Assembly (NCBI GenBank): GCA_964420015.1
Contig: CAYQPO010000003.1
Span: 1 to 63,607 of the forward strand
Direction of reading: 5' to 3'
From: an uncultured Candidatus Saccharibacteria bacterium
GTDB lineage: Bacteria; Patescibacteriota; Minisyncoccia; Phycocordibacterales; SBAW01
Length of the DNA stretch: 63,607 nt
In this document: one piece after another, positions 1 through 27,309 of the stretch
Layout of the letters: every line of letters begins with the position of its first letter
Numbering within the stretch: position 1 is the stretch's first letter
Made by a program: the position numbers and the translations under genes
The notes under the pieces: generated by a model
The model's input: only the letters and a program-made list of their open reading frames with translations
Told to the model about the DNA's origin: nothing
The model's database searches: none

Positions 1-167
1 CGAATTAGTCCGCCAAAGAAAAATTTGATATTGTCAGCGGAGCGGCTTCGCCGCGTTCGGCATTTTGGAGGCCGGATGCGCCGCGCCGCCGCCCCCGCCA
101 CCGGCGGCGCGGCTGGTTCGAGCTATTTCAAGTATTCTGCACCAAAAACGATCGCTTCGGAAATATT

Positions 168-10256: not shown

Positions 10257-12017
10257 TTAACCAAACGTGAACGTGTATGCGTCGAGCACTCCTTGGTCGA
10301 TATGGATTTCGATCGTGTGTTCTCCACTCTGCGCTCCGTGCACTAGTGTGTAGAGTCGGTGCTCTTTGATTTGCGCGTACCCGCCCGGGGCATCCTCGCC
10401 AGCATTTGCGTCAACCCTCTTCCCGTCGACAAAAATACTCAAAGTTGCCCCACTCTCCGAGCTTGCAACCAAGTACACGTCCCTGGCGATATATCTGAAT
10501 ACGATCGATGAGCCGGCGGAGGCACTCGCGTACTCTGCGCCGAAAGTCCAAGTCCCACCAAGATATAATTTATTGAGACTCACGGTGGCAGGAATCTTCA
10601 GTGTCTGCGTCCCAAAAGCCGTGCCATTGTCGAGAAATTCGTTGCGCGCCGAGCCAAAATACACCTCGGGGCTACCGATGTTGTCTGTGTGCGCTACGCC
10701 GCTTGGGGTAACCGTGCCCGACGATACTGCGGCGTTTGTCCCCAAGATTGTTGCCCGTTCGGCAAGCGCTTGCTGTATTGCTCGCTCGGTTTCGTCGTAG
10801 TTGCCTTCGCCCGCGTGGTCGTAGACGATAAAGCCGTCGATATCGACCAAATATTTGCGCGGCCAAAATTGGTTGCCAAAGGCATTCCATGTCCCGTAGT
10901 TATTGTCGAGCACGACCGGGTACTTGATGCCGAAGGTGTTGTCGACCGCATTTTGCACATTGGCAAGCACATGCTCAAAGGCAAACTCGGGCGTGTGAAT
11001 GCTGATGATTTCGAGCCCCTGATCGTGATATTTGTCGTACCAAGCCTTGAGATAGGGGATCGTGCGCTGGCAGTTGATGCAGGAATATGTCCAAAAATCG
11101 ATCAAGACAACTTTCTTACCCCTGAATTCACCAATCGTGATTGGTTTACCGTCGGTGTTTATGTAGCCGCCGCTTGGGTCAGTGATTTCCGGAGCTTGCT
11201 GATATTTCGCGCGCTTTGTCGCGATGCGTTCGGCCTCGGATTGCGTAGAGGTTGCGGCAACTTGGGTGTCCGCAACTCGACCGCCAGGCGCAGGAGTTTC
11301 GTTTGAAAGGAGCGAGCGCTCGATAGTGGTGACGTCGTAGAGATGATTTGCGACCGTAAGCTCGAGTGCAGGCTCATACCCCAAGAGGATGACGAGGCCG
11401 AGTATGACAAACACAGCCCCGATGACTCGCTTAAAGATGCCATTGGGATCCGCCGCCATGCCAAAACGCTCGGCGAGTTTTTGTCCGGCGAAAGAAACTA
11501 TGAGCAATGTCCCGCAAAGCCCCACGACGTAGGCGAGCAGGTCAACAATGCCGCCCCCGAGGCTCTTGGGGAGCACATCGGCGAGGATAAGAAAGTAGGT
11601 GGGTGAGCAGGAAGAAAATACGGGGCCCAAACTTGCGCCGATGATAATATCGCCATACAGACTTTGCTTTTGAAAACCGGTCGCGAGGCTTTGGTTGGAG
11701 GCACGGTTGATCGAATTTACAATCGGCAACCTGTCCCAGAGCTTTGGAAAGAGCATTGCAACACCAAGGAGCATGATAATTCCCCCCGACAAAGCTTGCC
11801 AAACTGTCTCCGGCACACCCAAAAATATCGTGCTCACTTTTAGTACGAAGGTGAATATAAACACCGAGACTCCGAGGGAGACGGCAACAAGCGCGGCGCG
11901 CGCCTTGCTCGTTCCGCCGCTCATCGTACCGCCAACGATTACTGGCAGGAGCGCCAGTGTGCAGGGCGCAAAAACAGTGAGCACGCCCGCAACAAAAGCA
12001 ATGAAAAGCAAAATCAT
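10257..12017 (-). CDS. dipZ: DipZ-like protein (CcdA membrane domain + thioredoxin domain + C-terminal beta domain)
   Basis: APCTLALLP and SSCSP in TM region; DFWTYSCINC CxxC; HTPEF; WPRKYLVD; AYTFTFG terminus. Confidence 0.9.
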   Translation of the reverse strand: MILLFIAFVAGVLTVFAPCTLALLPVIVGGTMSGGTSKARAALVAVSLGVSVFIFTFVLKVSTIFLGVPETVWQALSGGIIMLLGVAMLFPKLWDRLPIVNSINRASNQSLATGFQKQSLYGDIIIGASLGPVFSSCSPTYFLILADVLPKSLGGGIVDLLAYVVGLCGTLLIVSFAGQKLAERFGMAADPNGIFKRVIGAVFVILGLVILLGYEPALELTVANHLYDVTTIERSLLSNETPAPGGRVADTQVAATSTQSEAERIATKRAKYQQAPEITDPSGGYINTDGKPITIGEFRGKKVVLIDFWTYSCINCQRTIPYLKAWYDKYHDQGLEIISIHTPEFAFEHVLANVQNAVDNTFGIKYPVVLDNNYGTWNAFGNQFWPRKYLVDIDGFIVYDHAGEGNYDETERAIQQALAERATILGTNAAVSSGTVTPSGVAHTDNIGSPEVYFGSARNEFLDNGTAFGTQTLKIPATVSLNKLYLGGTWTFGAEYASASAGSSIVFRYIARDVYLVASSESGATLSIFVDGKRVDANAGEDAPGGYAQIKEHRLYTLVHGAQSGEHTIEIHIDQGVLDAYTFTFG

Positions 12018-12657: not shown

Positions 12658-12742
12658 AGCGGTGATAGTGGTGATTGTATGTGCTCAGAATACGGACGTC
12701 AAGGATACTTTACATACACGCTCTCAATAAAAACATCACAAG

Positions 12743-12829
12743 CGGAGGAGGTGAGATTCGAACTCACGGTGAGGTTTCCCCCACGCCGCATTTCGAGTGC
12801 GGTGCCTTCGACCACTCAGCCACTCCTCC
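12743..12829 (-). tRNA. tRNA-Ser(CGA)
   Basis: GGAGGAG/CTCCTCC acceptor, CCGCA-CTCGAAA-TGCGG anticodon arm, long variable arm. Confidence 0.96.
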
Positions 12830-12887
12830 TTAGTCGAACTGAAGTAAAATACCATTTTTTGTAGATTTGAGCTATATTTCTGTCTAA

Positions 12888-12959
12888 GGCCCTATCGTCT
12901 AACGGTTAGGACACCAGCTTTTCAAGCTGAGAATCCGGGTTCGATTCCCGGTAGGGTCA
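12888..12959 (+). tRNA. tRNA-Glu(TTC), probable integration target
   Basis: GGCCCTA/TAGGGTC acceptor, loop TTTTCAA, GGTTCGATTCC T-arm. Overlapped antisense by the recombinase 3' end. Confidence 0.95.
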
Positions 12960-14614
12960 CAAGAAGCAACAAAGCGGCTTTGCAACGCAGCAAAGCCCTT
13001 TTTGCACTTATAATCCAACACATTTTCGTTGAAGGTCAGTTCGGAAAAAATCACGCGAAGGATTTTATCTTTCTCGTGCGGCTCGGCCTCCGAGTAAATA
13101 ACCGCAGCGTTTTTTAGGAGTTCGGAAAGCAACACGACATCTTTTATGGTCTCGCGCATTGCGACATCGGATGTGACCTCTGCTTCGCAAAGCAGCGCCA
13201 ACTCCGCGCTCAAGCGTGCTTCTTCTGCAACAAAGGTTTCGGGCGTATACACGCCAGCTTTGAGCAAGGGAATACGATTGCCATTGAGATAGGCCAGCTC
13301 CTCGCGGATATTTTTCTTTTTGCGCTCGGCAGCATCAAGTTGGCTCATGCGTTTTGCCTCCAAGAGTGCAATGTCGGTGTTGGCTCGTGTATCAATCTCT
13401 ACAAGCTCCTGCTCGGTAAAGGAGAGTTTTGCAATTAGCTCGCCAGCTTTGTCAGTAAGAAAATCAAAGTTGAAGCTCTTGAGCGGGTTGGCACACTCTC
13501 GCGAGCAGCGAGCACCGTAGTACATGGTGCCTTTCTTCGGATACGGCGTGTACACGCGACCGCAGATGCCGCAAAAAGCAAAGCCGCGCAGCGGATGCTC
13601 TAACACTTCAAGATAGTGAACGCTTTTATTTCGCTTCGCCAAGCGCTCCTGCACGCGATTGAAAAGGTCTTCTGGGATGATTGCCTCGTGGCTCGTGCTT
13701 GGTATCCACTCACCATTTTCGTCCATCGTCTTGCCTGTGTAGTAGCGATTGGTCAGGATTTTGTGGATGGTGTTGTAGGTCGGCAAGCGACTTATTTGCT
13801 CAATCTCAACACGAACATCGTCCTCTTCTTCCATGAGCATCTCTTCTTTGGTGCGGCGGCGGCGCATGGGCGGCATAGTAAAGCCCTGTTCAATCGCCCA
13901 GCGTGCGAGGTCGTGCAAACTCCACTCGCCAGTATCGGCAAGCTTCGCCAACTCCAAGATGATAGGAGCGCGTACAGGGTCTTTGGGCTTCCAATCCATG
14001 TTGCCCTCGTTGAGATAGCCAACTGGCGCTTTATTGGTGGTCAGTCCACGAGAGCGTGCGCTGTGAATGGTGAGTGTCACTTTCTCTCGCGTGACGCGCG
14101 AGTGATGCTCCGAAAACATCCCGTCAATATCCATGTGCAACTCACCCGAGCTGGTCTTATCATATTGTGCGAAAGCGAAGCGGATATCCGCACCCGACTT
14201 CATCAATTTACGCAAAATCGTGTCATCGCCTTTATTGCGACTGGCTCTGTCCCAGCACAAAAAGATTGCGCCTTTGAAATAGCCCTTGCTCAAAAACTCC
14301 GCGAGGCGATAAAACTTTGGGCGCTCTACGCGGTACTGCACCATGCCTTCCTCAAAGGTAAGAGCAGTATCTTCTTTGAAGGCGCTGTGACGCTCGGAGA
14401 TAACGCCATCTTTGCAAAAGCCATCCAACGAGAGCACTGCAAGAGGTAGCTTCTCGCGGAAAGCAAAGCGTGTGTTCTCGGTACGCTGGTACTTCAGCGA
14501 GTTTTTTTGAATGTTGGGGTCGTCGGTGCTACGGCGGCCGTAGGTAAGATAGTGGTCGCGGTATTTGCCCGCCTGGATATCTTTGAGGAGTTGTTCGGTC
14601 GTTTTCATACTCAT
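12899..14614 (-). CDS. Large serine recombinase (resolvase + recombinase + zinc-ribbon domains)
   Basis: YGRRST catalytic Ser motif, WDRASRN, APVGY, CGICG...CSREC zinc ribbon, coiled coil. The last ~17 codons are antisense tRNA-Glu. Confidence 0.93.
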   Translation of the reverse strand: MSMKTTEQLLKDIQAGKYRDHYLTYGRRSTDDPNIQKNSLKYQRTENTRFAFREKLPLAVLSLDGFCKDGVISERHSAFKEDTALTFEEGMVQYRVERPKFYRLAEFLSKGYFKGAIFLCWDRASRNKGDDTILRKLMKSGADIRFAFAQYDKTSSGELHMDIDGMFSEHHSRVTREKVTLTIHSARSRGLTTNKAPVGYLNEGNMDWKPKDPVRAPIILELAKLADTGEWSLHDLARWAIEQGFTMPPMRRRRTKEEMLMEEEDDVRVEIEQISRLPTYNTIHKILTNRYYTGKTMDENGEWIPSTSHEAIIPEDLFNRVQERLAKRNKSVHYLEVLEHPLRGFAFCGICGRVYTPYPKKGTMYYGARCSRECANPLKSFNFDFLTDKAGELIAKLSFTEQELVEIDTRANTDIALLEAKRMSQLDAAERKKKNIREELAYLNGNRIPLLKAGVYTPETFVAEEARLSAELALLCEAEVTSDVAMRETIKDVVLLSELLKNAAVIYSEAEPHEKDKILRVIFSELTFNENVLDYKCKKGFAALQSRFVASCDPTGNRTRILSLKSWCPNR

Positions 14615-14817
14615 TCGATAACGCCCTCGCTTTTATAGATTTTACCATCTTTTATCGTGTAGCCCTTGTCACGGAGACGGCGGTAAATTGGCTCAAGCAC
14701 TGCTCCCAGCTCCCGAAACGCAAGTATGGTTTCATCGCTGAAAAATTGCTCCGTTGGTGAGAGTGGTACAACTTCAGTGAGCGGCTCGGCACGCTTGTAT
14801 TTGCGCGGCTTTCTCAT
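14611..14817 (-). CDS. Small hypothetical protein directly upstream of the recombinase (candidate directionality factor)
   Basis: 68 aa from MRKPRK, overlapping both neighbours by 4 nt (translational coupling). Function is inferred from position only. Confidence 0.6.
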   Translation of the reverse strand: MRKPRKYKRAEPLTEVVPLSPTEQFFSDETILAFRELGAVLEPIYRRLRDKGYTIKDGKIYKSEGVIE

Positions 14818-15458
14818 AAAGGTTTTTTTGCGAGCGCAACGCGTCTCCTGGTGAACAGGTCGGCAATACTGATGATTTCCTCGACGTAATACTTCACGTA
14901 TTCCTCGCGCAATGGAAGCTCTGCGATAACAAGAGTTTCGGAAAGCTTGAACTGGGTGACCCATTCGTTGTTGAGCTGCCGCAGTTGCTTGGCAAGGTCG
15001 TACCATTCCCGAATGTGCTTGCAGGTTGTTTCGTCGAAAAGAGGCAGGCCGTCGGCACGCTTCTCGATTTCAGCGATGGCTTGCTGGTACTCGGTGAACT
15101 CACGGATGTTGTGTGCGGCTTGTTGTGCTAACTCCGCTTTGTTGAGCATTACGAACGAGTGTTCGGTGATGTCGTCGGGCAGCACACGCATTGTTGCGAT
15201 ATTTTGAAACGTGAGTAGGAGCACCTGCCAAATGCGCTCGACCTCTTTGCGCCAAAGGACATAAGCCCAACGGTATTCCTCAATGAGATGCCAGCACGCC
15301 CTGTCTACGGCGTCGTTCGGCGTGTAGAGCAGCACGCGCTCATCGGGCACCGAGAAAATATCTTTGCCGTTGTTCTGGGCGTGCCAATGCGCGATGAGGA
15401 GCTTGGCACGCTCTTTGCCCGTGAGTCCCTGCGCTAGTTTGTGAGCGTCGAGTGTCAT
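14814..15458 (-). CDS. Hypothetical helical protein
   Basis: 214 aa ORF coupled to neighbours by 4-nt overlaps. Confidence 0.7.
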   Translation of the reverse strand: MTLDAHKLAQGLTGKERAKLLIAHWHAQNNGKDIFSVPDERVLLYTPNDAVDRACWHLIEEYRWAYVLWRKEVERIWQVLLLTFQNIATMRVLPDDITEHSFVMLNKAELAQQAAHNIREFTEYQQAIAEIEKRADGLPLFDETTCKHIREWYDLAKQLRQLNNEWVTQFKLSETLVIAELPLREEYVKYYVEEIISIADLFTRRRVALAKKPL

Positions 15459-15823
15459 ATTTTACGTTGGTCGAGGATGCTCTGCACGAGCTTCAGTTGG
15501 TCGTCGAGACGGCCGACCTCGATGGCTTTGAGGAGTACGCCACACAGGTAGCCGATAGCATTTGCACGTTGGTGCGAGAGCGGCTCCACGCGGATGCGAT
15601 TGATAGTGTCAGCAAGGAGGCCGACGATATCTTCGGTCGTTTTCAGTTCAACGGGTTCCAACGGTTCCGCGTCCTTGCGGGGCTTCGGTGCCAATCCGCC
15701 CTTGAGCACAGCCAGCTCTTTTTCGGCTTGCACGTCGGGGTTATGCGAAAAGCAGTACGGCGACTGGCTCATCGCGTTCGCCCTGCACTGGGTTCCGTCT
15801 GGTTTGATAAATTGACACGTCAT
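15455..15823 (-). CDS. C-x9-C-x10-C-x2-H zinc-finger protein (DUF5763/HGGxSTG-like) with helical C-terminus
   Basis: MTCQFIKPDGTQCRANAMSQSPYCFSH. Confidence 0.7.
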   Translation of the reverse strand: MTCQFIKPDGTQCRANAMSQSPYCFSHNPDVQAEKELAVLKGGLAPKPRKDAEPLEPVELKTTEDIVGLLADTINRIRVEPLSHQRANAIGYLCGVLLKAIEVGRLDDQLKLVQSILDQRKI

Positions 15824-15851
15824 AAGCTTTTGCTTGTAGGGTGGGGGCCGC

Positions 15852-17195
15852 TCAAAACGGAATGTCCGCGGGGTCTATTTCTGGCGGGTTGTAGGCAGTT
15901 GTGGAGACGTGCACATCACTATCGCCACCTTTGATGTCCTCATCAGTGATGCCCAGGCGGTCGCGCCAGTACCCAAGCCGTTCCTCGTTACGCGAGAAAG
16001 AGAGCACATAGCCCTTACTGATGCGTTCGGGCTTGAGCTGGAGCTTGGAGCGCATCACCCAACCAACTTTCCTGGCGGTGATAGTCTCGCCGATTTCTGC
16101 ATCGTTGTTGACCTCGACAGTAATGTTTTTGACCGCAAGACCATCGAGCTGCGTATTCTCGTGGAGGCGGAAGATGGCGAGGATGACCTGCGCTTCCCAT
16201 GACTGGGCGCGGTCAGCAATGAGTTCTTGGTTGTAACGTTTGGCGTGCTCAATAAGAGTAGTTTGGATAGTTTCACTCGGAAGGACTGCAAGGAGAGGAA
16301 TAATAATTTGCTGCATCCGTGGGTGCAATCCCTCGATGCGTTCGTCGTTGAACACGAGAGGCTTGCTGTAATTGCGGAAGCGAAAGGTTAGGAGTTTGTT
16401 GCGAAGCAACAAGGCCTCGGTGCGGAAACTATCATCAAGGCGAATCGGGATGTCTGGGCGCAGTTTGGTGCGACCCATATCTTCAATAAGGAAGCGCGAC
16501 TCAAGGGCTGCGTCGTCGTAATTCTGGCGGGTGGCAATAATTTTTGGAGAGAAAACATCGTAGCTCTTGACCTCAAAGACGCCCTTGCCTTCACTGCGGA
16601 GTACCGCCGTGCCTTTCTGATATCCCGAGTTCAATATCTTCACGAGGTCGTTGCTGAAATCGCTAAAGCGGAAGTCTGCCTCGTCGAGCACCAACGTCCC
16701 GCGCACTTGGTCGAGGATACGAAAAATCGGTGAGGTGGTAGTCGCGCCTGCCGTAAAGATAGGACGATAGCAAATGCTCCCGACGACAGAGAGGAAACGG
16801 CTCTTGCCACTTCCGTAGTCGCCACGCACGCGCAGATACGGCAACTCATTGAGACGGTCGTAGAGCCAAGTCAGAAGGACGTAATGGGCGGCAATTGTTT
16901 CGAACTCGGCTGACACATCGCAACGCTTGTGGATGAATGCTTGTACCTCGGCGAGCAACTCCGCCTCCGTGCCGTATCCAGTAGCCTCGGAAGGCAACAA
17001 TACGACGTTCTTGGCTACCAGGTCACTCTTGGCATCGAGCGGATGTATCTCGACCCCCTCAAGCTCGATTGAGTCTTGGTAATAGGTTTCGCCCGCGTCG
17101 TACAAAGCGAACCGTGTGCGCCGTGTGTCTGGGTTATAGACAGTCTCGGCGAGTGGGAGTTGAAGGGAGGCTTTGCGATTGATTTTCATACGCAT
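15852..17195 (-). CDS. P-loop ATPase, DUF3631-like/primase-helicase-associated protein of mobile elements
   Basis: Conserved LTWLY, Walker A GDYGSGKS, Walker B LVLDEAD, LNSGY, ALESRF. Confidence 0.75.
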   Translation of the reverse strand: MRMKINRKASLQLPLAETVYNPDTRRTRFALYDAGETYYQDSIELEGVEIHPLDAKSDLVAKNVVLLPSEATGYGTEAELLAEVQAFIHKRCDVSAEFETIAAHYVLLTWLYDRLNELPYLRVRGDYGSGKSRFLSVVGSICYRPIFTAGATTTSPIFRILDQVRGTLVLDEADFRFSDFSNDLVKILNSGYQKGTAVLRSEGKGVFEVKSYDVFSPKIIATRQNYDDAALESRFLIEDMGRTKLRPDIPIRLDDSFRTEALLLRNKLLTFRFRNYSKPLVFNDERIEGLHPRMQQIIIPLLAVLPSETIQTTLIEHAKRYNQELIADRAQSWEAQVILAIFRLHENTQLDGLAVKNITVEVNNDAEIGETITARKVGWVMRSKLQLKPERISKGYVLSFSRNEERLGYWRDRLGITDEDIKGGDSDVHVSTTAYNPPEIDPADIPF

Positions 17196-17210
17196 TTGGT
17201 TGGGTTACGG

Positions 17211-17498
17211 CTAATAAATAGTTCGCGCACGATACAGACGCGATTTCAGCGCCCGTCGCGCGGCGGCGAGCTTCAGTGCGGAGACAGTGAGGGTGCCCGC
17301 AAAATAGGCGCTGGATGTCTCCTCAATGCCTTCGCGTTTTTTGAAAATAAAGACGGAGCGCGTGCGGGTTGAATCTATGCTCTCTACTACGAATCCAGCT
17401 GCACACAGTGCTGTGCACTCGTCAAAATCGCTTGAATAAAAATAGTGCCCGTTATCATCGAGCGGGATATAAGTGATGTCGTCGTGCTTCATACTCAT
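17211..17498 (-). CDS. DUF5659-like small DNA-binding protein
   Basis: FYSSD...ALCAAGF...ID...SVFIF pattern; start placed at MSMKHDD. Confidence 0.65.
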   Translation of the reverse strand: MSMKHDDITYIPLDDNGHYFYSSDFDECTALCAAGFVVESIDSTRTRSVFIFKKREGIEETSSAYFAGTLTVSALKLAAARRALKSRLYRARTIY

Positions 17499-17511
17499 TT
17501 TGTCGTTAGCG

Positions 17512-17541
17512 AATAAAAAATGCGGCTTCGACGACCGCATT
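17512..17541 (-). terminator. Intrinsic terminator/attenuator within the element
   Basis: Minus strand AATGCGG-TCGTCGAAG-CCGCATT-TTTTATT. Confidence 0.65.
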
Positions 17542-17570
17542 GAACACCCGCTTTTTATTGAGCTGTGATG

Positions 17571-18506
17571 CTAACGGAAACCCTTAGTGTCTGGACGAAA
17601 CTCCTTCCCAAAAGAGTCCGCAATCATATCCGCGACCCGCTCTACTGCCTTACGTGCAGCGTCGGAAGAAATGCCAAACTGCCTGCCGATTTCCTTGCTT
17701 GTTTTTTCATCAAAATGGACTTGGATTGCTTTTTTGTGCAGACGCTCCAAGCCACGCCATTGTTTTGGCGACATTTTGTCCCGTTTGCGAGCCATTATTG
17801 AGAGGTAGGTACTTTTCTCGTAGTCTTTCTTCAATGTTGGTTTTTTGCTTCGCTTGACGAACTCTTTGAAAATCTGGAGGTCGCGGTCGAATTGTTTTTT
17901 CACCCTCGTTTTTACAACTACTTCTGGCGGCAAATAATGCCGCTGCATATTGGTAAGCATACCCATCGCATCTCGTAATTCTTTCTTACTCAAAGGAGCG
18001 TAAGTCGTGAGAGCGAGCCACTTCGCTGTGCCCTTGCGAGCTTCAGGGTTCATCGTGATTGACCAGTTTCCAGACGGTGCACGCACGACGCCTGTCTCAA
18101 TATATACCTGAAGCCCCTGCAATGGATTATCGGAAATGAAGTGCTCGGGTAATTTATATTTTTCTCCGAGCCGCCTCTTGAGGTAGCCCATTTTATAAAG
18201 CGGTGCAGTACGATACAACTCGTCACGCCTCTCCATGCGCTTTTGAGGCTGTTGGATGGTGAACATTTCCTTCTCCGCCTTGAGAAACTTTGGTGCATCC
18301 ATAATGCGGTCAGTCTCGACGATGAGGTTGTGGTGCCACTTACGGCGGTCTTCGTGGTTAGAAAAGCCATCAGGCGGTATGCCTACTTCCTTACGCACAG
18401 CACGTACATCCTCTTGAAATGAAGGCAAGGCATCTAGCAGCCTGAAACGCACCTCATTTTTGTACTGAATGGGCGCTGCTTGTTTTCTAGCCTTTTTCAT
18501 ATTCAT
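17571..18506 (-). CDS. Hypothetical basic protein with C-terminal HTH
   Basis: 311 aa; TSKEIGRQFGISSDAARKAVER resembles an HTH. Confidence 0.7.
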   Translation of the reverse strand: MNMKKARKQAAPIQYKNEVRFRLLDALPSFQEDVRAVRKEVGIPPDGFSNHEDRRKWHHNLIVETDRIMDAPKFLKAEKEMFTIQQPQKRMERRDELYRTAPLYKMGYLKRRLGEKYKLPEHFISDNPLQGLQVYIETGVVRAPSGNWSITMNPEARKGTAKWLALTTYAPLSKKELRDAMGMLTNMQRHYLPPEVVVKTRVKKQFDRDLQIFKEFVKRSKKPTLKKDYEKSTYLSIMARKRDKMSPKQWRGLERLHKKAIQVHFDEKTSKEIGRQFGISSDAARKAVERVADMIADSFGKEFRPDTKGFR

Positions 18507-18510
18507 TGAA

Positions 18511-18580
18511 GTTCATAATGTGCACAAAGTGCACAGACTCACCCTTGCCAGTGCACGTAATGAACGTCGTGCACATTATA
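18511..18580 (-). promoter_or_regulatory. Promoter/operator array with four GTGCAC palindromes
   Basis: GTGCAC at 18520, 18529, 18551, 18569; inverted repeat ATAATGTGCAC (18515-18525)/GTGCACATTAT (18569-18579); minus-strand TATAAT at 18575-18580. Confidence 0.55.
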
Positions 18581-18609
18581 GGTCGTTTGGCTATTTCGCT
18601 CCTAGCGGC

Positions 18610-19110
18610 CTATTGAATCGAGTCAACGCGGCAGTTGATAAGAGCCTGGGTGCCACCTGCTTTTTCGCCTGTAACCGTTATCGTGTCGCCAGCCACCGTA
18701 TTGGCAAAGTTTTGTTCGCCATTGACGATGCAATACCAACCACTTCCGTCGTTGATAGCGTCTGCATCCCCGCCGAAAATAATGGTTTGTTGGTTGATAC
18801 CCATTACTTTGTTGAAGTTGATGACGCTCGTGCGGACAACACCTGATACAGTCTTTCTGACGAGGCCAGTGTCACCAGTATCTGGCGATGCGGTGTCGCT
18901 TGCAGAAGTTGTGTTGTCTTGGGACGGTTGCGTTTGAGTTGGAGCAGCGTTCTGTTGAACCTCTGGCGCTAGCTGATTCACCGACGCGTCTTGCTGTGCT
19001 TTGTTGAGAGAGGATAGGAGGATAGAACCTCCGACGAGGATAACGGCAGTCCAACCAAGCACTTTCAACCACTTTCGTTTCGGCTTTTGCGGCTCCGAGG
19101 AGCTATTCAT
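18610..19110 (-). CDS. Membrane-anchored OB-fold protein (tRNA_anti-like)
   Basis: N-terminal TM, Q/T/S linker, C-terminal GDTITVTG...LINC. Confidence 0.7.
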   Translation of the reverse strand: MNSSSEPQKPKRKWLKVLGWTAVILVGGSILLSSLNKAQQDASVNQLAPEVQQNAAPTQTQPSQDNTTSASDTASPDTGDTGLVRKTVSGVVRTSVINFNKVMGINQQTIIFGGDADAINDGSGWYCIVNGEQNFANTVAGDTITVTGEKAGGTQALINCRVDSIQ

Positions 19111-19171
19111 ATGTGCTAACTATAGTATGTAGACCCATAGTTAGCAAATACCTACGCTTGCTAGTGTAGGT

Positions 19172-19384
19172 ATGAATAAAAAAATCTTAGAGCAGTTCGG
19201 GAAGCGTGTTCGAGAGGAGAGGGACAGGTTGGGCATCTCCCAAGAGCGTCTTGGACAACTCGCCAAAGTACACCGAACTTACATTGGAATGATTGAGCGA
19301 GCAGAGAAAAACATTACGCTCACGAATATGGAGAAAATTGCTCGGGCACTCGGACGTAAAGTATCCGACTTAGTGGACTTTTAG
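19172..19384 (+). CDS. XRE-family HTH regulator (C-protein-like)
   Basis: FGKRVR..R...GISQERLG....VHRTYIGMIERAEKNITL. Confidence 0.92.
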   Translation: MNKKILEQFGKRVREERDRLGISQERLGQLAKVHRTYIGMIERAEKNITLTNMEKIARALGRKVSDLVDF

Positions 19385-19397
19385 GACTCTGGAGCTT

Positions 19398-20114
19398 TTA
19401 TATACTCGCGAGTCTTATAATAACGTACAAAGTAGAGACGCCAGCGATTGTCATTACTGTAGTCCAACGCACAGGATGGGAATGGTAGCTTTCTGGGATA
19501 AGGTCACTTGCGCCAATGTAGAGAAAGAAACCAGAGAAAAGTGCCAGTAGGAGTCCGAGCTTATCTTCTGGCAAAACGAAAAAGAATGTCGAGAGCACAC
19601 CGACAACAGGAGCGATTGCATCAACGAGTAGCCACCGAAACGCCTTCCTCTTATCTCCTTTGTTTTTGAGTACAAGATTGACCGTATTGATTCCGTCTGA
19701 AAAATCGTGGGTGAGGACGGCAGCAGCCACAATTGCGCCAACGGTCGCTGAGACTTGAAATGCCAACCCTATACCTACACCATCAAGAAAGCTATGAAAG
19801 GAGAGACTTCCTGCGCCAGCATTTCCACGGCGTTCATCGCCGCCATCGTGCATAGTATGACCGTGCAAAAGTATGAATCGGTCGAGAACCAGATAAGTTG
19901 AGAAGCCGATTACCAGTACCGTAAGTACTGTTAGGTCGGAATACGCTTTTCCAGCCAAATCTAATGCTTCTGGTAGGAGGTCGAAAAAAGCAACTGCAAG
20001 AATCGCCCCAGCACTAAACCCAAGAATCAAATGCAACCTATCTTTTAGGTAGAGTGCAAATGAACCGCCGATGAGTGTCGAAAAGAATGTTGCTATCGTG
20101 ATAAGGACGACCAT
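19398..20114 (-). CDS. ZIP-family zinc/metal transporter
   Basis: GFSAGAIL..AFFDLLPEA, FHSFLDG, THDFSDG, GFFLYI...DLIPE. Confidence 0.9.
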   Translation of the reverse strand: MVVLITIATFFSTLIGGSFALYLKDRLHLILGFSAGAILAVAFFDLLPEALDLAGKAYSDLTVLTVLVIGFSTYLVLDRFILLHGHTMHDGGDERRGNAGAGSLSFHSFLDGVGIGLAFQVSATVGAIVAAAVLTHDFSDGINTVNLVLKNKGDKRKAFRWLLVDAIAPVVGVLSTFFFVLPEDKLGLLLALFSGFFLYIGASDLIPESYHSHPVRWTTVMTIAGVSTLYVIIRLASI

Positions 20115-20118
20115 ATTT

Positions 20119-20556
20119 TTATGCTCTCGGACAGCTTGCGCAGAGTCCGAAAAACTCTAAGTTATGCGAATAAATGCTTTTGAATCGTCTTGAAGCTTGC
20201 GTCATCTGCCCGTGCAGTTTATCGACGGAACATTTTTCAATGTCCTCAACTGCGCCGCAGTCGGTGCAGATGATGTGGTGGTGATGCGGTCGTTCGGGTG
20301 TGTACTCGAAATGTGCAGTGCCAGTATTGAGGTCAACGCGCCTAACGACATGTGCGTCCGCGAGGTCACTCAGAGTTCTATAAAGAGTTGTTTGATTAGG
20401 TAAATCCTCTTTCCACGACCCCAATATACGTTGAATTGAAAGAGGCTTTTCAGCTCTATATAGCAATTTCAGGAGTTTTATTCTTGGAGTTGTAATGCGA
20501 AACCCTTTAGCACGAAGCTGCTCTCGGATAAATACCTCTGTGTCTTTAGTGTCCAT
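20119..20556 (-). CDS. Fur/Zur-family transcriptional repressor
   Basis: RITTPR, TLYRTL, HHHHIICTDCG, GLCASC. Confidence 0.93.
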   Translation of the reverse strand: MDTKDTEVFIREQLRAKGFRITTPRIKLLKLLYRAEKPLSIQRILGSWKEDLPNQTTLYRTLSDLADAHVVRRVDLNTGTAHFEYTPERPHHHHIICTDCGAVEDIEKCSVDKLHGQMTQASRRFKSIYSHNLEFFGLCASCPRA

Positions 20557-20600
20557 TCCTTCAATATATACTAATGCAAATTATTTGCAATAGCAAAAAC

Positions 20601-21734
20601 CTAGTGGTGATGTTGGTGAGCTTCCTGTTTTGCCATTTCTTTGCCGTGCAGCATATACGAAGCAATGAGCGTGGTGATTGGAACCCCTAAAATAAGACCA
20701 ATACTGCCAATGAGAATGCGGACGATTTCTGTAGAAAATATCTCGTTGTTTATCATAAATGCGACCCCTGTAGTGGAGCTTTGAATTAGCAAGAGAATAG
20801 GCAAGGAAGCCCCCACATAGGCGATTGCGAGCGTATTCACCAATGCCCCTATGTGCTCTCTCCCTATCCGAATTGCCCTTTTGTATATCTCTGGTCGTGT
20901 GAGGTGTTTGCCGATGCTCAATAATTCTTCAACGGCTATAGCTTGCCCGATAGCAATATCGTATAGCACACCGAGCAAACCAATCATAATGCCCCCAAAT
21001 AAAAGGCCGACCATATCTATCTTCCCCCGCGTATCGAAGTTTAGGTAAACATTTTCTTCAGTCGTATAACCTGAAAGATGGGCGGCGTGCACCGTCCACC
21101 ACGCACCGAGACCTGTGATGACCACGGTAAGAATCATTCCCAGTACAGCCGCTGTAGTAGTGCGGTTGAAGCCGTGCGTAATATACGAACCCACAATTAT
21201 TATGAGAGAAGATACCCCAATACTTACAAGAATTGCTGAGTAGCCGTGATAAATGCCTGGTATGAGTAAATAAAAAATAAGTACAAAGCTTCCGCACAAA
21301 CTTGCGAGACCCCGAACACCCTGCCATCCACCGAAAATAAAAATGAGAGCGATAAAGACAAAGGCTAGTATTCCAAGAACATTTAGTCGATACGGGTCAG
21401 ACACCGACCAAAAATCTGTACCGTCGAGCTGATTGGTTTCGTGACGGGCGTAGAATATATCGCCGACCTGAAGTTGAATATAATCGTTATCAAATGTCAC
21501 TACTTTTCCTTTATCAACACCATCAAGTATCTCGGTTTTTAGTGTCTCAGTTTGTGTTGGCGTGTCTGTGCCAGGCACGGTTGTTGTATGTTGGTTTTGA
21601 ACTTCAAGCACACGCGCCTTTTCAAAGTCCTGCGTATCAGCAACAACATTTGTCTGCGCGTGAGAGACGAGCGGAAAGATGATAGAAAAGACTAACAAAA
21701 TAAAAAAATGTGGAAGTTTGAATCGCAGCATCAC
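20601..21734 (-). CDS. YibE/F-family membrane protein with His-rich tail
   Basis: G.LYDIAI.Q...V.EL, GREHIGALVNTLAIAYVGASLP, EIVRILIGSIG; ends HQHHH. Confidence 0.88.
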   Translation of the reverse strand: MMLRFKLPHFFILLVFSIIFPLVSHAQTNVVADTQDFEKARVLEVQNQHTTTVPGTDTPTQTETLKTEILDGVDKGKVVTFDNDYIQLQVGDIFYARHETNQLDGTDFWSVSDPYRLNVLGILAFVFIALIFIFGGWQGVRGLASLCGSFVLIFYLLIPGIYHGYSAILVSIGVSSLIIIVGSYITHGFNRTTTAAVLGMILTVVITGLGAWWTVHAAHLSGYTTEENVYLNFDTRGKIDMVGLLFGGIMIGLLGVLYDIAIGQAIAVEELLSIGKHLTRPEIYKRAIRIGREHIGALVNTLAIAYVGASLPILLLIQSSTTGVAFMINNEIFSTEIVRILIGSIGLILGVPITTLIASYMLHGKEMAKQEAHQHHH

Positions 21735-21817
21735 GTTTTAGTATACTCTCCACAAACAGGGATTTCTAATTGCCCTATATAGGGCAAAATAGCTACAAAT
21801 CGGCTACAATGCTGATT

Positions 21818-22684
21818 ATGGCGAGACGATATAGAAACTACAGACGTGCGGACTCTGATGGCGACATTGTAAATATCGTCGCCTCAATTTTTGGCCTCTA
21901 CGCGATGTATCTCCTGCTGCTCTATTTCACCAATCGTGCAGAGTTTTGGAGGTGGACAGTTTATGGTGCTCTGGCAGTCATAGCGATTTTTGCTCTTGCT
22001 CTCGCGTTTGTAAAAGTGAAAGCTGCGACGAAAGAGAGGCATCTTCAAAAGCTGCTTGCGACTGTACGGCAGGCTGGAATGGAAGACCAGCTCAAAAACT
22101 TTTTCATCCGCTTCGGTATGGGACAGGACAGGAGCAAGAACGCCTGGGAGTATCGCAACTACAAGATTGATTGGAAGCGTTTTCATGAGATGGAGGATAT
22201 CTTGCGCGGCAAGGGCGTGAGGCTCGAAGACAACAAAGACCTTGCTCTTTTGTTGAGACACTACATTGATGAGCGAGAGTTCGGCGTTACTTCCAACAGC
22301 ATCCAGGCGAGCACAAAGAGTTTCAAGGAACTGAACGGCCCTGCATTTGAATCGCTGCTGCTGCGTCTCTACGAGAAGATGGGTTACGCTGTGCAGCACT
22401 CGGGCAAGGTGGGCGACCAGGGCGGCGATTTGGTTGCAACGAAAGGGGCGGAGCGGCTATTGATTCAGGCGAAATGCTACCAGAATATGTCCGTGGGAAA
22501 CGACGCTGTGCAGCAGGCGGTTGCCGCGAAGACGTACTACGACTGCAACAAAGCAGCGGTTGTAACGACCAGCGAGTTTACGCGCGAGGCGGTTGAACTT
22601 GCGAAGTCCAACAACGTTGAGCTGATAGCCAAAACGAGGTTGCAGCAACTCCTACTCGACAACTTATCCGAGAGCTGGGCTTAG
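21818..22684 (+). CDS. Mrr-like restriction endonuclease with two N-terminal TM helices
   Basis: FESLL..LY.KMGY...GDQGGDL...IQAKCY...V...AVQ...A...Y...A.VVT.S.FT..A (PD-QxK Mrr_cat pattern). Start placed after a TACAAT box. Confidence 0.9.
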   Translation: MARRYRNYRRADSDGDIVNIVASIFGLYAMYLLLLYFTNRAEFWRWTVYGALAVIAIFALALAFVKVKAATKERHLQKLLATVRQAGMEDQLKNFFIRFGMGQDRSKNAWEYRNYKIDWKRFHEMEDILRGKGVRLEDNKDLALLLRHYIDEREFGVTSNSIQASTKSFKELNGPAFESLLLRLYEKMGYAVQHSGKVGDQGGDLVATKGAERLLIQAKCYQNMSVGNDAVQQAVAAKTYYDCNKAAVVTTSEFTREAVELAKSNNVELIAKTRLQQLLLDNLSESWA

Positions 22685-22721
22685 GCACAAGAGTTGCAAT
22701 CGTCACTGAAGCCGCAGATAC

Positions 22722-24719
22722 TTGGCTTTGATGAGAACAGACACCCCAAAAATAGACACGGGGCACATTTGTATCGCCCACAAGGAGAAAACGACGCTTG
22801 CTGCGGTTGTTTCCTCGTACTTTGCCGACGAGGGCTACTACCTGCCGCTCTTTTTGTTTCCGAACGTCGGAAGCAACTCAAGTTCCGAAGAAGACGACTT
22901 TCAAGAGGATGGTTATATCGCCAGGCATATCGGCGAGCGGGCGGCGGTGTTGACCAACAACGCGATGGCCAGGATGGATGAGTGCAAAATGGTAATTCTC
23001 GTCGGCCTGTCCGAACACCAAAAGTCCTACCTTCGAATACCACGCAAAATCCCCATCATTGAGGTTGATGATATGAGCCAGGTGGAATCGAAGCTGCTAC
23101 CAATAAGTGAGAAAAAAGAGGTGTTGGAGTGCCGCAGCGACGACGCGCTCAATGCTTTATACATTGCGAAGAAAACTGGGAAGCGGCTCGTTATAAACGA
23201 AGCAGCAGCGATTGAGGTGCCAGCGCTCGAAGACGGTAAAGGTATCATTGTGCTAGAAAAGGGTGAGCAGGCGCTCGCTATCGTCGCGGTGAACTATGCC
23301 TACGCCGTGGACGCAAACTTGCTGCTCGTCGAAGGCTTCAACAAAGAGGATAGGCACGGTGTCGAAAGAAACATCCAAAAGTGGCGCGATAATGGAAGCC
23401 ACAACCAGCTCCAAAAGTGCCTCAACAAGGTCTCGCACCGCATCGGTTCGGTTGCCTTCGACCGATTCAAATACGCAACATTTTTTACAGTCGGCCTGCC
23501 GTACTCGCTCGGGATAAAGAATGTCATCCCGTGCAGCTATGTACAGTTGGCGTTGAGTCCCGACCTGTTTATCGTCAACTCAATACTCTTTGAGAGCGCC
23601 GAGCGTTTCAATTCTGCCGTCGTATTCTCGCCAGGTTTCTTCCAAGACGAGGAGACCAAAAGTGTCTTTGACCTATTCGTCAAAAACAACTATTACGTGC
23701 GCCCACTGGTCAACAATCATGCGACCGTGCGAAATCTGGATTTTCACGCGCAGCACTTCCCGTATGACATTTTGCATATCTGTACGCACGGTGGCGAAGT
23801 TGACGGGTATGCTGTGACAGAAACTTATCGCGATAGGAATGGTGCAGAACACACTGTTGAGTACGATGAGGTGGTAGGCTTTGCGCCTGTCCCTGGCAAA
23901 GACCTGATTGAAGTGCATAGGAAACTCTTTTTCCGAAAGTTTGATGGCTTCGCTTGGATGAGCCCAGAACTGAAAAAACAGAAATATCCAAATTACGTCT
24001 TTGAGGATATGAGAAAGGAGATTTTTCAGAAGGAGGATGTAAAGCCTACTCCTCGAAAGAGCAAGGACAAAATACCGACATCTTGTGCCATTGCGTGCAT
24101 AGATAGTATCCACCAGGGGATGTTCCAAATACTCGCGTCGCACAGCTCGCCGCTCATATTCAACAATGCCTGCTGGTCTTGGTCGGAGGTTTCGACCTTC
24201 TTCCTCTCTAACGGGGCTAGAGGTTACATCGGTACGCTATGGGACATTGAAAACTCGGCAGCGGTTGCGGGCGCAAATGCTTTTTACGGCAACCTGTTCG
24301 ATAAAGGCGTGCTCAACGCATTCTTCGAGAGCATAAAAGCCGTGCGAGGCACCGATGCGGAGAATATCTATGTGTACTGGGGCTTACACTTTAGTACCCT
24401 CGACCGAGGGACGAGCTACGAAGAGAGCAGAAGCAGGGTTTTCAGAGAATTGATTCGCTCTTTTTTCGCCTGGCTAGAAAAGGTGAAGACAATCAAAAAT
24501 CAAACGATAAAGAAAAACTCCATCGAAGTGGTCAGGAGCATCCACACTGAAATCCTCAACAACTTCAAACCGCGTGACCTCGAAAAGCTCGACGCCGAAA
24601 TAAGGCGGCGAATGGCCGAGCTACCACAGCAAACACGGTCATCCAGCGAGGGCGACCGAGAGCTGCTCCAAGACATAGCGTCAATCGAGCCGCCTGTTGA
24701 ATATCGAAAGGCGGATTAG
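22722..24719 (+). CDS. Caspase-hemoglobinase-fold (CHAT/C25-like) cysteine protease with uncharacterised N-terminal region
   Basis: DILHICTHGG (His), PLIFNNACWS (Cys), GARGYIGTLWDIE...AFY CHAT-type C-terminal motif. Confidence 0.8.
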   Translation: MALMRTDTPKIDTGHICIAHKEKTTLAAVVSSYFADEGYYLPLFLFPNVGSNSSSEEDDFQEDGYIARHIGERAAVLTNNAMARMDECKMVILVGLSEHQKSYLRIPRKIPIIEVDDMSQVESKLLPISEKKEVLECRSDDALNALYIAKKTGKRLVINEAAAIEVPALEDGKGIIVLEKGEQALAIVAVNYAYAVDANLLLVEGFNKEDRHGVERNIQKWRDNGSHNQLQKCLNKVSHRIGSVAFDRFKYATFFTVGLPYSLGIKNVIPCSYVQLALSPDLFIVNSILFESAERFNSAVVFSPGFFQDEETKSVFDLFVKNNYYVRPLVNNHATVRNLDFHAQHFPYDILHICTHGGEVDGYAVTETYRDRNGAEHTVEYDEVVGFAPVPGKDLIEVHRKLFFRKFDGFAWMSPELKKQKYPNYVFEDMRKEIFQKEDVKPTPRKSKDKIPTSCAIACIDSIHQGMFQILASHSSPLIFNNACWSWSEVSTFFLSNGARGYIGTLWDIENSAAVAGANAFYGNLFDKGVLNAFFESIKAVRGTDAENIYVYWGLHFSTLDRGTSYEESRSRVFRELIRSFFAWLEKVKTIKNQTIKKNSIEVVRSIHTEILNNFKPRDLEKLDAEIRRRMAELPQQTRSSSEGDRELLQDIASIEPPVEYRKAD

Positions 24720-24809
24720 TTCGTAGGTACTAGCGCCCGTAATTCTTGCAAGCTCAAGCCGATGGCGGCTCGGTATTGTCCGAGTTCGGAAAGCCACGTA
24801 AACTGGTCA

Positions 24810-25184
24810 CTAGTTTCCGGGGATTACAAATTGCGCAACGAGGCCGATGACCGCGCCGATCGAGAGGACCCCGCCGATGAGTGTGATGCGTTTGACCGTG
24901 CCAACATTATTGATATGGAGGAAATAGGCTAGTATCAAAAGGAGAAAAAAGTAGAGCGAACTCATAAAATACCAATCGAACACTTGCAGCACTGCGATCA
25001 GAGTTTTAGAAATATGCGGATCGTTGAAGACGCGCGTCTGGAGCCAAAAGTGGATCGCATCGGTCGGGTCGGGTGCCAGCTCGCCGAGCGCCGCGCCGAG
25101 CAAAAAGATCCCCACCGGTGTTTTGAGAAACTTTTTCTCCGGTGTTAAATACCACCCCTTTGCGTGCTCGATTAGTCTTGCCAT
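24810..25184 (-). CDS. Hypothetical membrane protein
   Basis: 124 aa with three hydrophobic segments; its stop codon lies at the inferred element boundary. Confidence 0.7.
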   Translation of the reverse strand: MARLIEHAKGWYLTPEKKFLKTPVGIFLLGAALGELAPDPTDAIHFWLQTRVFNDPHISKTLIAVLQVFDWYFMSSLYFFLLLILAYFLHINNVGTVKRITLIGGVLSIGAVIGLVAQFVIPGN

Positions 25185-25229: not shown

Positions 25230-26210
25230 CTACTGCTGTTCGTGATAGGTATAGACCAGTGTAGAGATATCGCGGATTTCTTGGGCGAGCGTCTCAAAGT
25301 TGCTCCCGCGTGTCATCACACACAAAAGGTATGCGTCGTCGGTGTAGACGATGCCGCAGTCGTGCAGCTCTACCCCCAAGGGCGCCCCGGCGGGGCTCAC
25401 AAACTTCCGTTCGCCAAATTTTTGGGCGACCATGGTCGAACTCGCCACACCCCCACGCAGCCCATAGGGGAACGAAGCTTTACTCATGAGCTCGAGTGCC
25501 TTTTGAGAATTGGTGCGACTTAAATACGTGGCGTTATAGAAAATGCGCAAAAAGTTAGAGTACGTTTGAGGCGACATGATGTCACCGAGACTTGTGGGCA
25601 ATTGTATGTCGAGGCTTAGATAAATCTTGTTGAGAGCTTCTTGGGGGATCGAGTCGAGGTCGAGTAGTCTGGCGGCGTTATTGTCTGAGTACTCGATCAT
25701 GTAGGTGAGCAGCTCCTCGATGCTGTAGGAGTGACCAGCCTGGATACTTGCCGTGGGCTGGTAGTATTCAGCCTTATTGTCGTCGAAGCTGCCGTCGTAA
25801 TAAATCTCTTTTTGTAAAAAGCCCGGGTGCTCGTCTGCATAGCGCAGCGTTGCTGCAAGCGTGGGCACTTTAAGCATGCTCGCAGGCGAAAACTCTTTTT
25901 CTTGGTTAACTCCGGCCCAGGAGCCACGCACGTTGGGGCCACCCAGGCTCAAATAATAGACCCCAACCTCTTGCTCTTTTGCCCCTGCAATATATTGTGC
26001 GAGCTTTTTGCTGAGAGTTGTGTCCTCTTTGCGCGACTCGGTGACGTTGTTGTTGCACAGAAGCACCGGATTAATAAGCGAGTAGCCCTTTTCGCGCAAG
26101 ACCGTGTTTTGTGCCAGGTTGGGCGCGCTCGTGCGGCCTGCAAACACCCCCATGCCAAAAGCCGCGACAAGCCCCAGCGCTACAAGACCACGGGCTTGGA
26201 GCGTACTCAT
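25230..26210 (-). CDS. Class A beta-lactamase-like serine hydrolase
   Basis: ASMLK (SxxK), SDN, KFG at the KTG position, HDCGIVY; N-terminal TM. Confidence 0.88.
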   Translation of the reverse strand: MSTLQARGLVALGLVAAFGMGVFAGRTSAPNLAQNTVLREKGYSLINPVLLCNNNVTESRKEDTTLSKKLAQYIAGAKEQEVGVYYLSLGGPNVRGSWAGVNQEKEFSPASMLKVPTLAATLRYADEHPGFLQKEIYYDGSFDDNKAEYYQPTASIQAGHSYSIEELLTYMIEYSDNNAARLLDLDSIPQEALNKIYLSLDIQLPTSLGDIMSPQTYSNFLRIFYNATYLSRTNSQKALELMSKASFPYGLRGGVASSTMVAQKFGERKFVSPAGAPLGVELHDCGIVYTDDAYLLCVMTRGSNFETLAQEIRDISTLVYTYHEQQ

Positions 26211-27145: not shown

Positions 27146-27170
27146 AACTGTATTCTAACGCACTGTCCCC

Positions 27171-27199
27171 TTGCTGCAAAAGTGGGGCAGAGTTACTGT
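27171..27199 (+). promoter_or_regulatory. Candidate sigma70 promoter for dnaA
   Basis: TTGCTG-N17-TACTGT; AAGGAG SD precedes the ATG at 27310. Confidence 0.4.
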
Positions 27200-27309
27200 G
27201 GTGTGCGGAAGGCCTTAGAAACTACTCGCGTTTTTGTGTTCGGCCTAGCCCCATAAAAACACCTGACTGGAAGTGGTTTAACCCAAACAGACGACAAGGA
27301 GTTTTGCAG

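Follow-up and report, generated by a model that had tools for sequence, protein, structure and literature searches.

Within a stretch of 63,607 nucleotides of contig CAYQPO010000003.1 (the window), a gene for a large serine recombinase (LSR) runs in antisense into a tRNA-Glu gene and ends there, and a detached 3' end that fits the same gene lies at the far end of a probable integrative element. We conclude with good confidence that this LSR carries its element attachment site (attP) inside its last ~30 codons and that its C-terminal tail is exchanged when the element inserts at the end of tRNA-Glu. The element itself very probably occupies window positions 12961-24810, 11,850 bp (~11.85 kb) from core to core. 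Both conclusions were reached by comparing the anatomy of attachment sites across relatives, and they are supported by an independent copy of the element, by a survey of related loci and by the conservation of the detached tails; the same lines of evidence uphold the proposal of a first-pass annotation that integration swaps the LSR C-terminus at a tRNA end.

Attachment sites and the two ends of the recombinase gene

The integrated LSR gene is a minus-strand open reading frame (ORF; 12899..14614) of 571 amino acids, delimited by ORF calling, Pfam, homologues and AlphaFold modelling. Its C-terminal end, ...SCDPTGNRTRILSLKSWCPNR, lies within antisense tRNA-Glu: antisense tRNA provides the final 20 codons as well as the TAG stop, the codons from D to R being tRNA-derived and the stop codon located in the D-arm. 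ARAGORN places tRNA-Glu(ttc) at 12888-12960(+), and the Rfam tRNA model places it at 12888-12959 (62.4 bits); by the Rfam boundary, the discriminator A73 falls at 12959 and tRNA position 74 at 12960. The hexamer GGTCAC, which is GTGACC in the LSR sense, is present at 12955-12960 and at 24805-24810. From 24808 on the minus strand to a TAA at 24716-24718 runs a frame of 30 codons without an internal stop, DQFTWLSELGQYRAAIGLSLQELRALVPTN (detached LSR 3' end, 24716..24808, -). When the two ends are joined at the hexamer, this frame continues the integrase as ...RFVASC-DQFTWLSELGQYRAAIGLSLQELRALVPTN and then stops, giving a protein of 581 amino acids versus 571 in the integrated form. Beyond the hexamer, a 124-amino-acid host ORF (24810..25184, -) has its stop codon at 24810-24812, abutting the core, and in the reconstituted empty site this stop directly adjoins tRNA-Glu. 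The antisense read-through, the paired hexamers, the stop-free 30-codon tail and the abutting host gene had all been put forward in the first-pass annotation, and ORF translation, ARAGORN and Rfam reproduce each of them at the same positions.

An independent copy of the element defines its boundaries. The closest homologue of the window LSR (P0001, 96% identity) ends in another tRNA-derived tail, and its 201-kb contig, L001, holds a second copy of the element, 9.1 kb in length. By blastn, the two copies share the LSR and element core (window 12886-18581 = L001 11729-6033; 85% nucleotide identity), an Mrr gene (21818-22680 = 5090-4228; 87%) and the detached tail (24716-24810 = 2678-2584; 89%), and on both sides homology ends at GTGACC. 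The flanks of L001 are unrelated to those of the window, with a NUDIX gene on one side and Mur-ligase and division genes on the other, and its target is tRNA-Glu(ctc) rather than tRNA-Glu(ttc), the anticodon and T-stem differing between copies. Read in the integrase sense, the tRNA end of both copies is ...CTTCTT-GTGACC-CTAC(C/G)GGGAATCGAACC, and the far end is host-GTGACC-AGTTTAC(G/T)TGGCTTTCCGAACTC. The left core (attL; 12955..12960, -) is thus marked by a switch of homology against L001, with the crossover within 12957-12960, and the right core (attR; 24805..24810, -), the right end of the element, by the end of that homology; both are further delimited by the block shared between attL and attR. 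It had been cautioned that a lone 6-bp match can be chance, a concern allayed by this copy with the same ends and by 25 further attL/attR pairs.

To describe the sites across the family, we aligned 18 attL and 23 attR sequences of tRNA-Glu loci and measured attL/attR identity in 26 pairs. The shared block is 4-10 bp long, always starts at the same G (12960) and comprises at minimum GTGA; in the window only GTGACC (6 bp) is repeated at both ends. On this alignment, the crossover dinucleotide would be GT, TG or GA and would fall within the first four hexamer bases (tRNA positions 71-74); insertion would leave the tRNA intact. The acceptor stem of tRNA-Glu has a G2-U71 wobble pair that adjoins the crossover. 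Across loci the core co-varies with the target, being GTGACC at Glu, GTGGGC at Val and Leu, and GTGGAC at Ala, with ATGACC at both ends in L014.

The tRNA arm of attB (B'), the P arm and the P' arm are conserved, and the host-side B arm carries ~0 bits (23 sites). The aligned B' arms read GTGACCCnACGGGGAATCGAACC. In the window, the conserved half B' is the host tRNA-Glu(UUC) (12888..12959, +; ARAGORN, Rfam, flank synteny), and the non-conserved B arm falls in the 124-amino-acid host gene. The P arm (12961..12995, -) lies within LSR coding sequence (codons ...GFAALQSRFVASC) and appears in the 18 attL sites as a conserved block, aaaNccgNtttNttgct..tt, beside the core, with a partly symmetric AAAnCC block. 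The P' consensus is GTGACC-N8-TGGCTTTCNGAACT, and its motif TGGCTTTCCGAACT (24783..24796, -), 14 nt from the core and nearly invariant in the 23 attR sites, supplies the codons W-L-S-E-L. The P and P' arms have partial dyad symmetry and are quasi-palindromic. GAAC stands at +18..21 in B' and at +23..26 in P', an offset of 5 bp. An LSR half-site spans ~25 bp, and in the sites of LI integrase the zinc-ribbon-domain motif is shifted 5 bp inward in attB relative to attP (PMC3783163); by analogy, we infer that the GAAC offset matches this known shift. One feature of the first-pass annotation did not hold up in full. The two halves of an imperfect inverted repeat around the core, ATTCCCGG (12944-12951) and CCGGGGAT (24817-24824), are present, but their symmetry is not above chance: the reconstituted window attB has a dyad score of 10 versus 8.7 +/- 1.2 in shuffles, ~25% of which reach 10, and the family mean over 26 sites is 8.0 versus 8.7 expected. 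With neither score above shuffles and the B arm unconserved, we rejected the repeat as a meaningful feature.

Detached tails are preserved as coding sequence. All 26 attR remnants found upstream of tRNA-fused genes are in frame and stop-free, 27-38 codons long, and follow the pattern D-x3-WLSEL-x3-R-x2-I-x2-SI-x-EL. Synonymous/non-synonymous codon changes between the window tail and those of L001, L007 and L029 number 7/1, 5/4, 9/3 and 7/2. Judged by these codon comparisons, the detached tails are shown to be constrained at the protein level. In the window the tail does not share a frame with the upstream host gene, and in L001 the neighbouring gene is divergent; the tail is therefore not expressible when integrated, and selection would therefore act when it is rejoined to the integrase gene. 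Codon choice within WLSEL is itself skewed, with CTT for the first Leu in 45/47 cases (background 27%), TCC or TCA for Ser in 48/49 (31%) and GAA for Glu in 49/49 (65%), a bias that fits DNA-level constraint on the P' arm of attP.

Structure prediction separates the two C-termini. An intact-form relative, P0003 (73% identical to the window LSR), has an AlphaFold mean predicted local distance difference test (pLDDT) score of 79; its C-terminus is modelled as a beta hairpin, a short helix, a low-confidence linker at C-D-P-T-A-W and a helix at 570-592 with pLDDT ~72-86. Residues 550-571 of the integrated window form have pLDDT <50 and no secondary structure. The intact tail is accordingly predicted to be an ordered amphipathic helix and the tRNA-coded tail a disordered peptide.

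The rest of the window protein has the features of an LSR. Pfam detects a Resolvase domain (PF00239, E=1.5e-9) and a Recombinase domain (PF07508, E=6.8e-10), with a sub-threshold match to PF13408 Zn_ribbon_recom (18.4 bits versus a cut-off of 25.3). In an alignment of 40 sequences, R27, S29 and D31 of the motif YGRRSTDD are invariant, as are C348, C351, C370 and C374, where AlphaFold predicts beta strands; long helices modelled at 401-501 match the coiled-coil insertion of the zinc-ribbon domain. A resolvase-type catalytic domain with its serine, recombinase and zinc-ribbon domains, a coiled-coil and short attachment sites together indicate that the protein belongs among the LSRs.

Relatives, hosts and element content

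A protein search returned 818 relatives at E <= 1e-10, and we classified the tails of the best 120: 70 are tRNA-like (...DPTGNRTPI...CPNR), 42 read ...DPTGWLSEL followed by ~20-35 residues, and 8 are of other kinds. The forecast that homologues would carry WLSEL-type C-termini is thereby borne out for 42 of the 120 closest, alongside the 70 with tRNA-derived tails. We then surveyed 80 loci, taking one genome per species. The LSR 3' end overlaps an antisense tRNA in 47 (25 Glu-ttc, 15 Glu-ctc, 4 Ala, and 1 each of Val, Leu and Ser), 21 have an intact WLSEL tail, and 12 end otherwise or run off the contig. At 26 loci the integrated and reconstituted forms have different C-termini, as in the window. 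The fused loci come mostly from metagenome-assembled genomes (MAGs) of Patescibacteria, among them Paceibacterota, Adlerbacteria, Saccharibacteria, Nomurabacteria, Taylorbacteria and others.

Synteny links both window flanks to the Candidatus Adlerbacteria MAG locus L009, in which the same tRNA-Glu is occupied by a different element whose LSR is 68% identical to that of the window. This synteny and the origin of most fused loci support a Patescibacteria relative as host, in line with the earlier suggestion of a host from the Candidate Phyla Radiation. In the window, tRNA-Ser(cga) and tRNA-Glu(ttc) (12742-12960) are divergent neighbours with 58 nt between them, and the pair is kept in L008, L009, L034 and L054. 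Homologues of the right flank of the window (26200-35600) lie on the tRNA side of the element in L008 (12843-14405) and L029 (12807-21176), an order that indicates a probable rearrangement or inversion around the tRNA-Glu locus.

Some Patescibacteria loci appear to record more than one insertion. Tandem tail remnants, each after GTGACC and upstream of one tRNA-fused integrase, occur in L046 (four, at 3367, 3972, 4948 and 6142), L029 (two, at 1607 and 4580) and L056 (two, at 1319 and 2170). In L009, a 40-residue LSR 3' fragment joined to a WLSEL tail (2493-2670) lies 8.2 kb upstream of the tRNA-fused gene. These remnants and the L009 fragment fit repeated insertion into attL followed by decay, and tandem insertion is a plausible origin for L009, L029, L046 and L056.

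Other LSR ends may point to further targets. A third kind of tail, C/Y/S-EP-x2-P-x2-E-H/N..., also recurs; it is not of tRNA origin or of the WLSEL type and occurs at L063 (~7180-7213) and L069 (~11650-11803) and in proteins P0054 and P0064; it may mark another recurrent target, and no gene or RNA was identified at its sites in L063 and L069. LOOT RNA (RF03000, 66-82 bits) is found at three loci whose integrases have unusual tails, L063 (4269-4389), L013 (5637-5755) and L069 (17684-17803), all on the minus strand, and Rfam gives no LOOT match within the window element. L003/L004 hold a second, distantly related serine recombinase (528 amino acids; 14447-16033, +) that overlaps by 46 nt a convergent comM-like Mg-chelatase gene fragment (15988-17091, -), which may be another case of an attachment site inside a gene.

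Next to the LSR in the window lies a gene of ~68 amino acids (MRKPRKYK...FSDETILAFRELGAVLEPIYRRLRDKGY...; 14611..14817, -), recognized by tblastn and translation, which overlaps the LSR start codon. It has tblastn matches in 32 loci, including non-Patescibacteria loci with intact tails, and could be an accessory or directionality factor of the LSR. The core genes that follow (14814..19110, -), encoding proteins of 214, 122, 447, 109, 311 and 166 amino acids, are colinear with L001 at 85% nucleotide identity. They have no informative match in Pfam, PHROG, NCBIfam or PADLOC. A homologue of the 447-amino-acid protein is present in 26 loci, and by BLASTP neither this protein nor the 311-amino-acid one shows similarity to the coupling-protein-like or Replic_Relax proteins that intact-form elements encode.

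Genes for a ZIP transporter, a Fur-family regulator and a YibE/F membrane protein (19398..21734, -; Pfam, composition, L001 alignment gap) form a block of lower G+C (44-47%) that is missing from L001 as a blastn gap and looks like separately acquired metal-homeostasis cargo. An Mrr-type nuclease (304 amino acids) and a CHAT-domain protein (665 amino acids) occupy 21770..24719 (+), as shown by Pfam and, for the nuclease, PADLOC Mrr-like matches; the Mrr gene is common to the window element and L001, and of these two copies only the window has the CHAT gene. The window element is longer than the L001 copy (11.85 versus 9.1 kb) because it has the ZIP/Fur/YibE-F block and the CHAT gene in addition. 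The CHAT gene (22722-24719) ends in a TAG that overlaps the TAA of the detached tail on the opposite strand (24716-24719), leaving no intergenic DNA between the convergent frames. Pfam finds no Phage_integrase domain among the element proteins, which thus include no tyrosine recombinase. A viral origin was considered and rejected: relatives of the LSR are absent from IMG/VR, the core genes have no PHROG matches, and the element bears no phage sign.

Proposed mechanism and competing explanations

In the mechanism that we propose, the LSR gene of the excised circle would read ...RFVASC-DQFTWLSELGQYRAAIGLSLQELRALVPTN and encode the 581-amino-acid form. Recombination at the core, GTG(A), would attach the element to the outermost 3' bases of tRNA-Glu, at positions 71-74. 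In the integrated state, the LSR runs antisense through the tRNA and ends in ...C-DPTGNRTRILSLKSWCPNR, with its stop codon drawn from the D-arm, and the original 30-codon tail lies 11.8 kb off at the other end of the element, to be rejoined upon excision. The main recognition determinant would be the tRNA half of attB, in which the T-arm sequence TCGAAC may act as the zinc-ribbon-domain motif; the WLSEL codons (TTTCCGAAC) would place the corresponding motif of attP 5 bp farther from the core. The integrated LSR gene would converge on a highly expressed tRNA to which it is complementary. Swapping an ordered helix for a disordered peptide would most likely change the activity or directionality of the integrase when integrated, as with IntP/IntX of Myxococcus phage Mx8. 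Because attL would keep the tRNA half, it could be re-used as a target, and such re-use would explain the tandem tail remnants.

We suggest, tentatively, that the C-terminal helix could be a built-in commitment or directionality switch. The circle form would integrate, the tRNA-tailed form would be inactive or excision-competent without a separate factor, and attB would be read through a single tRNA acceptor/T-arm half-site, a near-universal landing site at which repeat insertion is allowed. There is also some chance that tail exchange is a neutral by-product of an attP packed against the integrase gene, with both forms acting alike and direction set by a separate factor such as the 68-amino-acid partner. 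The small gene overlapping the LSR start is conserved in intact-tail and fused loci alike, the tRNA-coded tails vary in length and sequence, and the LSR is full-length in the 47 integrated copies, suggesting that the fused form is still useful. Such a by-product sits less easily with a tail that is conserved as protein beyond the ~25-bp P' arm, at fixed length, with mostly synonymous changes and a predicted amphipathic helix; this conservation argues for selection on the full-length protein. The swapped form of the Mx8 integrase is moreover less active, as quoted in PMC4701971.

Two further explanations would undo the exchange altogether. It is improbable that the far-end WLSEL stretch is conserved only as DNA, as a P' arm that is never translated, the true gene end being tRNA-fused or an earlier stop. 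Strong synonymous-site bias at TGG-CTT-TCC-GAA and the near invariance of TGGCTTTCNGAACT speak for such a role, but the frame stays open for 60-90 nt past the ~25-bp half-site in 26/26 remnants and has a consistent end, 42 database proteins are called with the tail contiguous to the body, and substitutions are mostly synonymous. The chance is slighter still that the arrangement is fixed, with tRNA-Glu belonging to or neighbouring a resident recombinase, the GGTCAC at 24805 a chance 6-mer and 12.9-24.8 kb no mobile unit. In 63 kb, chance alone would produce a 6-bp repeat many times over, the G+C of most of the region is near the flank value, and the empty site was not found. Set against this, L001 homology stops at the hexamer at both ends between unrelated flanks, and the tRNA anticodon and T-stem differ between copies although the element is 85-89% identical. 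L009 preserves the tRNA pair and the synteny of both flanks and, at that place, holds an element with a 68%-identical LSR, and 25 further attL/attR pairs have the same geometry.

Several observations nonetheless weigh against tail exchange at an in-gene attP, or against a switch built upon it. The junctions that exchange predicts are a circle junction ...GCTTTGTTGCTTCTT-GTGACC-AGTTTACGTGGCTTTCC and an empty site ...CCCGGTAGG-GTCAC-TAGTTTCCGGGG. Exact-match scans of metagenome contigs for the circle junction of the window element gave 0 matches, a looser circle-junction pattern gave 0 matches in viral contigs, and an exact-match scan for the empty site GGTAGGGTCACTAGTTTCCGG likewise gave 0. A look-up of the 124-amino-acid flanking host protein retrieved only one other contig, L090, which is also occupied, and terminal overlaps indicating circularity were found in 0/21 short loci, the majority complete contigs, including L018 and L065 of the intact form. 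At the sites themselves, the GAAC motif that links P' to B' is short, at 4 bases, and the dyad axis given by the AAAGCC/GGCTTT motifs is displaced 1 bp leftward from the attL/attR identity block. The tRNA-coded tails range from 8 to 20 residues, and nothing suggests that they have a function of their own. A conserved ~68-amino-acid gene could be a conventional directionality factor, which would make a tail-based switch unnecessary. Finally, the 21 intact loci lie on long chromosomal contigs, flanked to either side by mobile-element genes, mostly in Bacteroidota, Proteobacteria, Verrucomicrobiota and Acidobacteriota; an intact tail alone therefore does not mean an excised element.

Among these chromosomal intact-tail loci are L076 (Kordiimonas aestuarii), L055, L032, L083, L086 and L002-L005. 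Genes for ArdC and for coupling-protein-like (TrwB-like), relaxase-like and Replic_Relax proteins neighbour the intact WLSEL genes, which keep the GTGACC core, 4 codons before WLSEL, and the TGGCTTTC motif. A tyrosine recombinase adjoins tRNA-Met in L055, and L067 and L084 have shared TGTTGTACC repeats beside a tRNA. The elements with chromosomal intact forms seem to sit there by another route. We rejected tandem insertion, with a second LSR beside a downstream tRNA, as the origin of the Bacteroidota and Proteobacteria intact forms, where tblastn found no LSR remnants and the junctions are without a P arm.

Known systems and implications

The closest precedent for C-terminal exchange is found in the serine integrases of streptococcal integrative and conjugative elements (ICEs) that target rumA, and not in Mx8, the precedent named in the first-pass annotation, which had rightly stated that attP lies inside the Mx8 tyrosine integrase gene. 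In the rumA-inserted ICEs of streptococci and clostridia (Tn1549/Tn5252-type; Ambroset et al. 2016), the att site lies inside a single serine integrase gene whose 3' parts are exchanged on integration, giving a different C-terminus, and the flanking repeats are very short, 2-21 bp (PMC4701971). Like them, the window element has an LSR with an att site in the 3' part of its own gene and integrated and excised forms that differ in C-terminus. Their target, unlike ours, is the protein gene rumA, whose C-terminus is altered too, with a change of reading frame. Here the element would insert at the final 1-4 nt of a tRNA gene and leave the tRNA whole, antisense reading of that tRNA supplies the new tail and its stop, the detached tail is predicted to be a conserved helix, and only one attB half is conserved; the comparison is one of site anatomy, not of sequence relatedness.

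In Mx8, as summarized in PMC4701971, attP lies within intP and integration replaces the C-terminal 112 residues by 13, the prophage form being less active; Mx8 and SSV integrases extend across attP (PMC4383910). The likeness to Mx8 is in an attP inside the integrase gene and a C-terminus replaced on integration, whereas its enzyme is a tyrosine recombinase with other chemistry and site architecture, and the exchange here is much smaller, ~30 residues for ~20.

For canonical LSRs, attP is described as outside the integrase coding sequence. The intact-form P0003 model matches the structures of SPbeta, phiC31, Bxb1 and LI integrases with a Foldseek probability of 1.0 and E down to 3e-15, at template-modelling scores that are low over the whole multidomain chain and an identity to the solved enzymes of only ~15%. 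With canonical LSRs (LI/A118, SPbeta, phiC31, Bxb1) the family shares the domain order of resolvase, recombinase and zinc ribbon with coiled-coil, short quasi-palindromic sites and the 5-bp motif shift. Those enzymes bind both attB half-sites as specific sequence, whereas here attP is coding and the host-side attB arm has no detectable conservation.

From phiRSM (Askora et al. 2011), a recombinase of the serine family is known that takes a tRNA 3' end as its attB: as reviewed in PMC4471427, this is the end of tRNA-Ser, the core is 13 bp and attP lies between two genes. It is a small resolvase/invertase-type enzyme without C-terminal exchange; the window LSR, at 571 amino acids, has both extra domains, recombinase and zinc ribbon. 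Islander-class islands, which have tyrosine integrases, insert at the 3' side of tRNA genes and leave the tRNA functional (PMC4383910). Insertion at the tRNA 3' side with a functional tRNA is common to both, but islands of that class carry a tRNA fragment that regenerates the gene, with a displaced fragment, and here only 4-10 bp are shared and no tyrosine recombinase is present.

Att sites are thus already known within a serine integrase gene, from the rumA ICEs, and within a tyrosine integrase gene, from Mx8. Apparently new are the use of a tRNA as target, the reading of that tRNA in antisense, the half-site attB and the spread among Patescibacteria; a literature search found no published description of this LSR family or of antisense-tRNA read-through, though the search was incomplete and is not proof of absence. 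A 2014 reference work gave tRNA-gene targeting as unknown for the serine family (PMC4383910).

If the proposed exchange is true, large serine integrases can target tRNA genes, and an enzyme that reads only the tRNA half of its target would appear to differ from the textbook attB of two half-sites. For annotation, tRNA-tailed and WLSEL-tailed proteins would be two states of one gene, not two subfamilies. With its conserved tRNA-end target and permissive second half-site, such an integrase would be attractive as a landing tool across many hosts, and a conserved, detachable helix would be a natural experiment on how the C-terminus affects integrase activity or direction. With 47/80 loci tRNA-fused, this LSR family may rank among the major classes of integrative element of the little-known, small-genome Patescibacteria.

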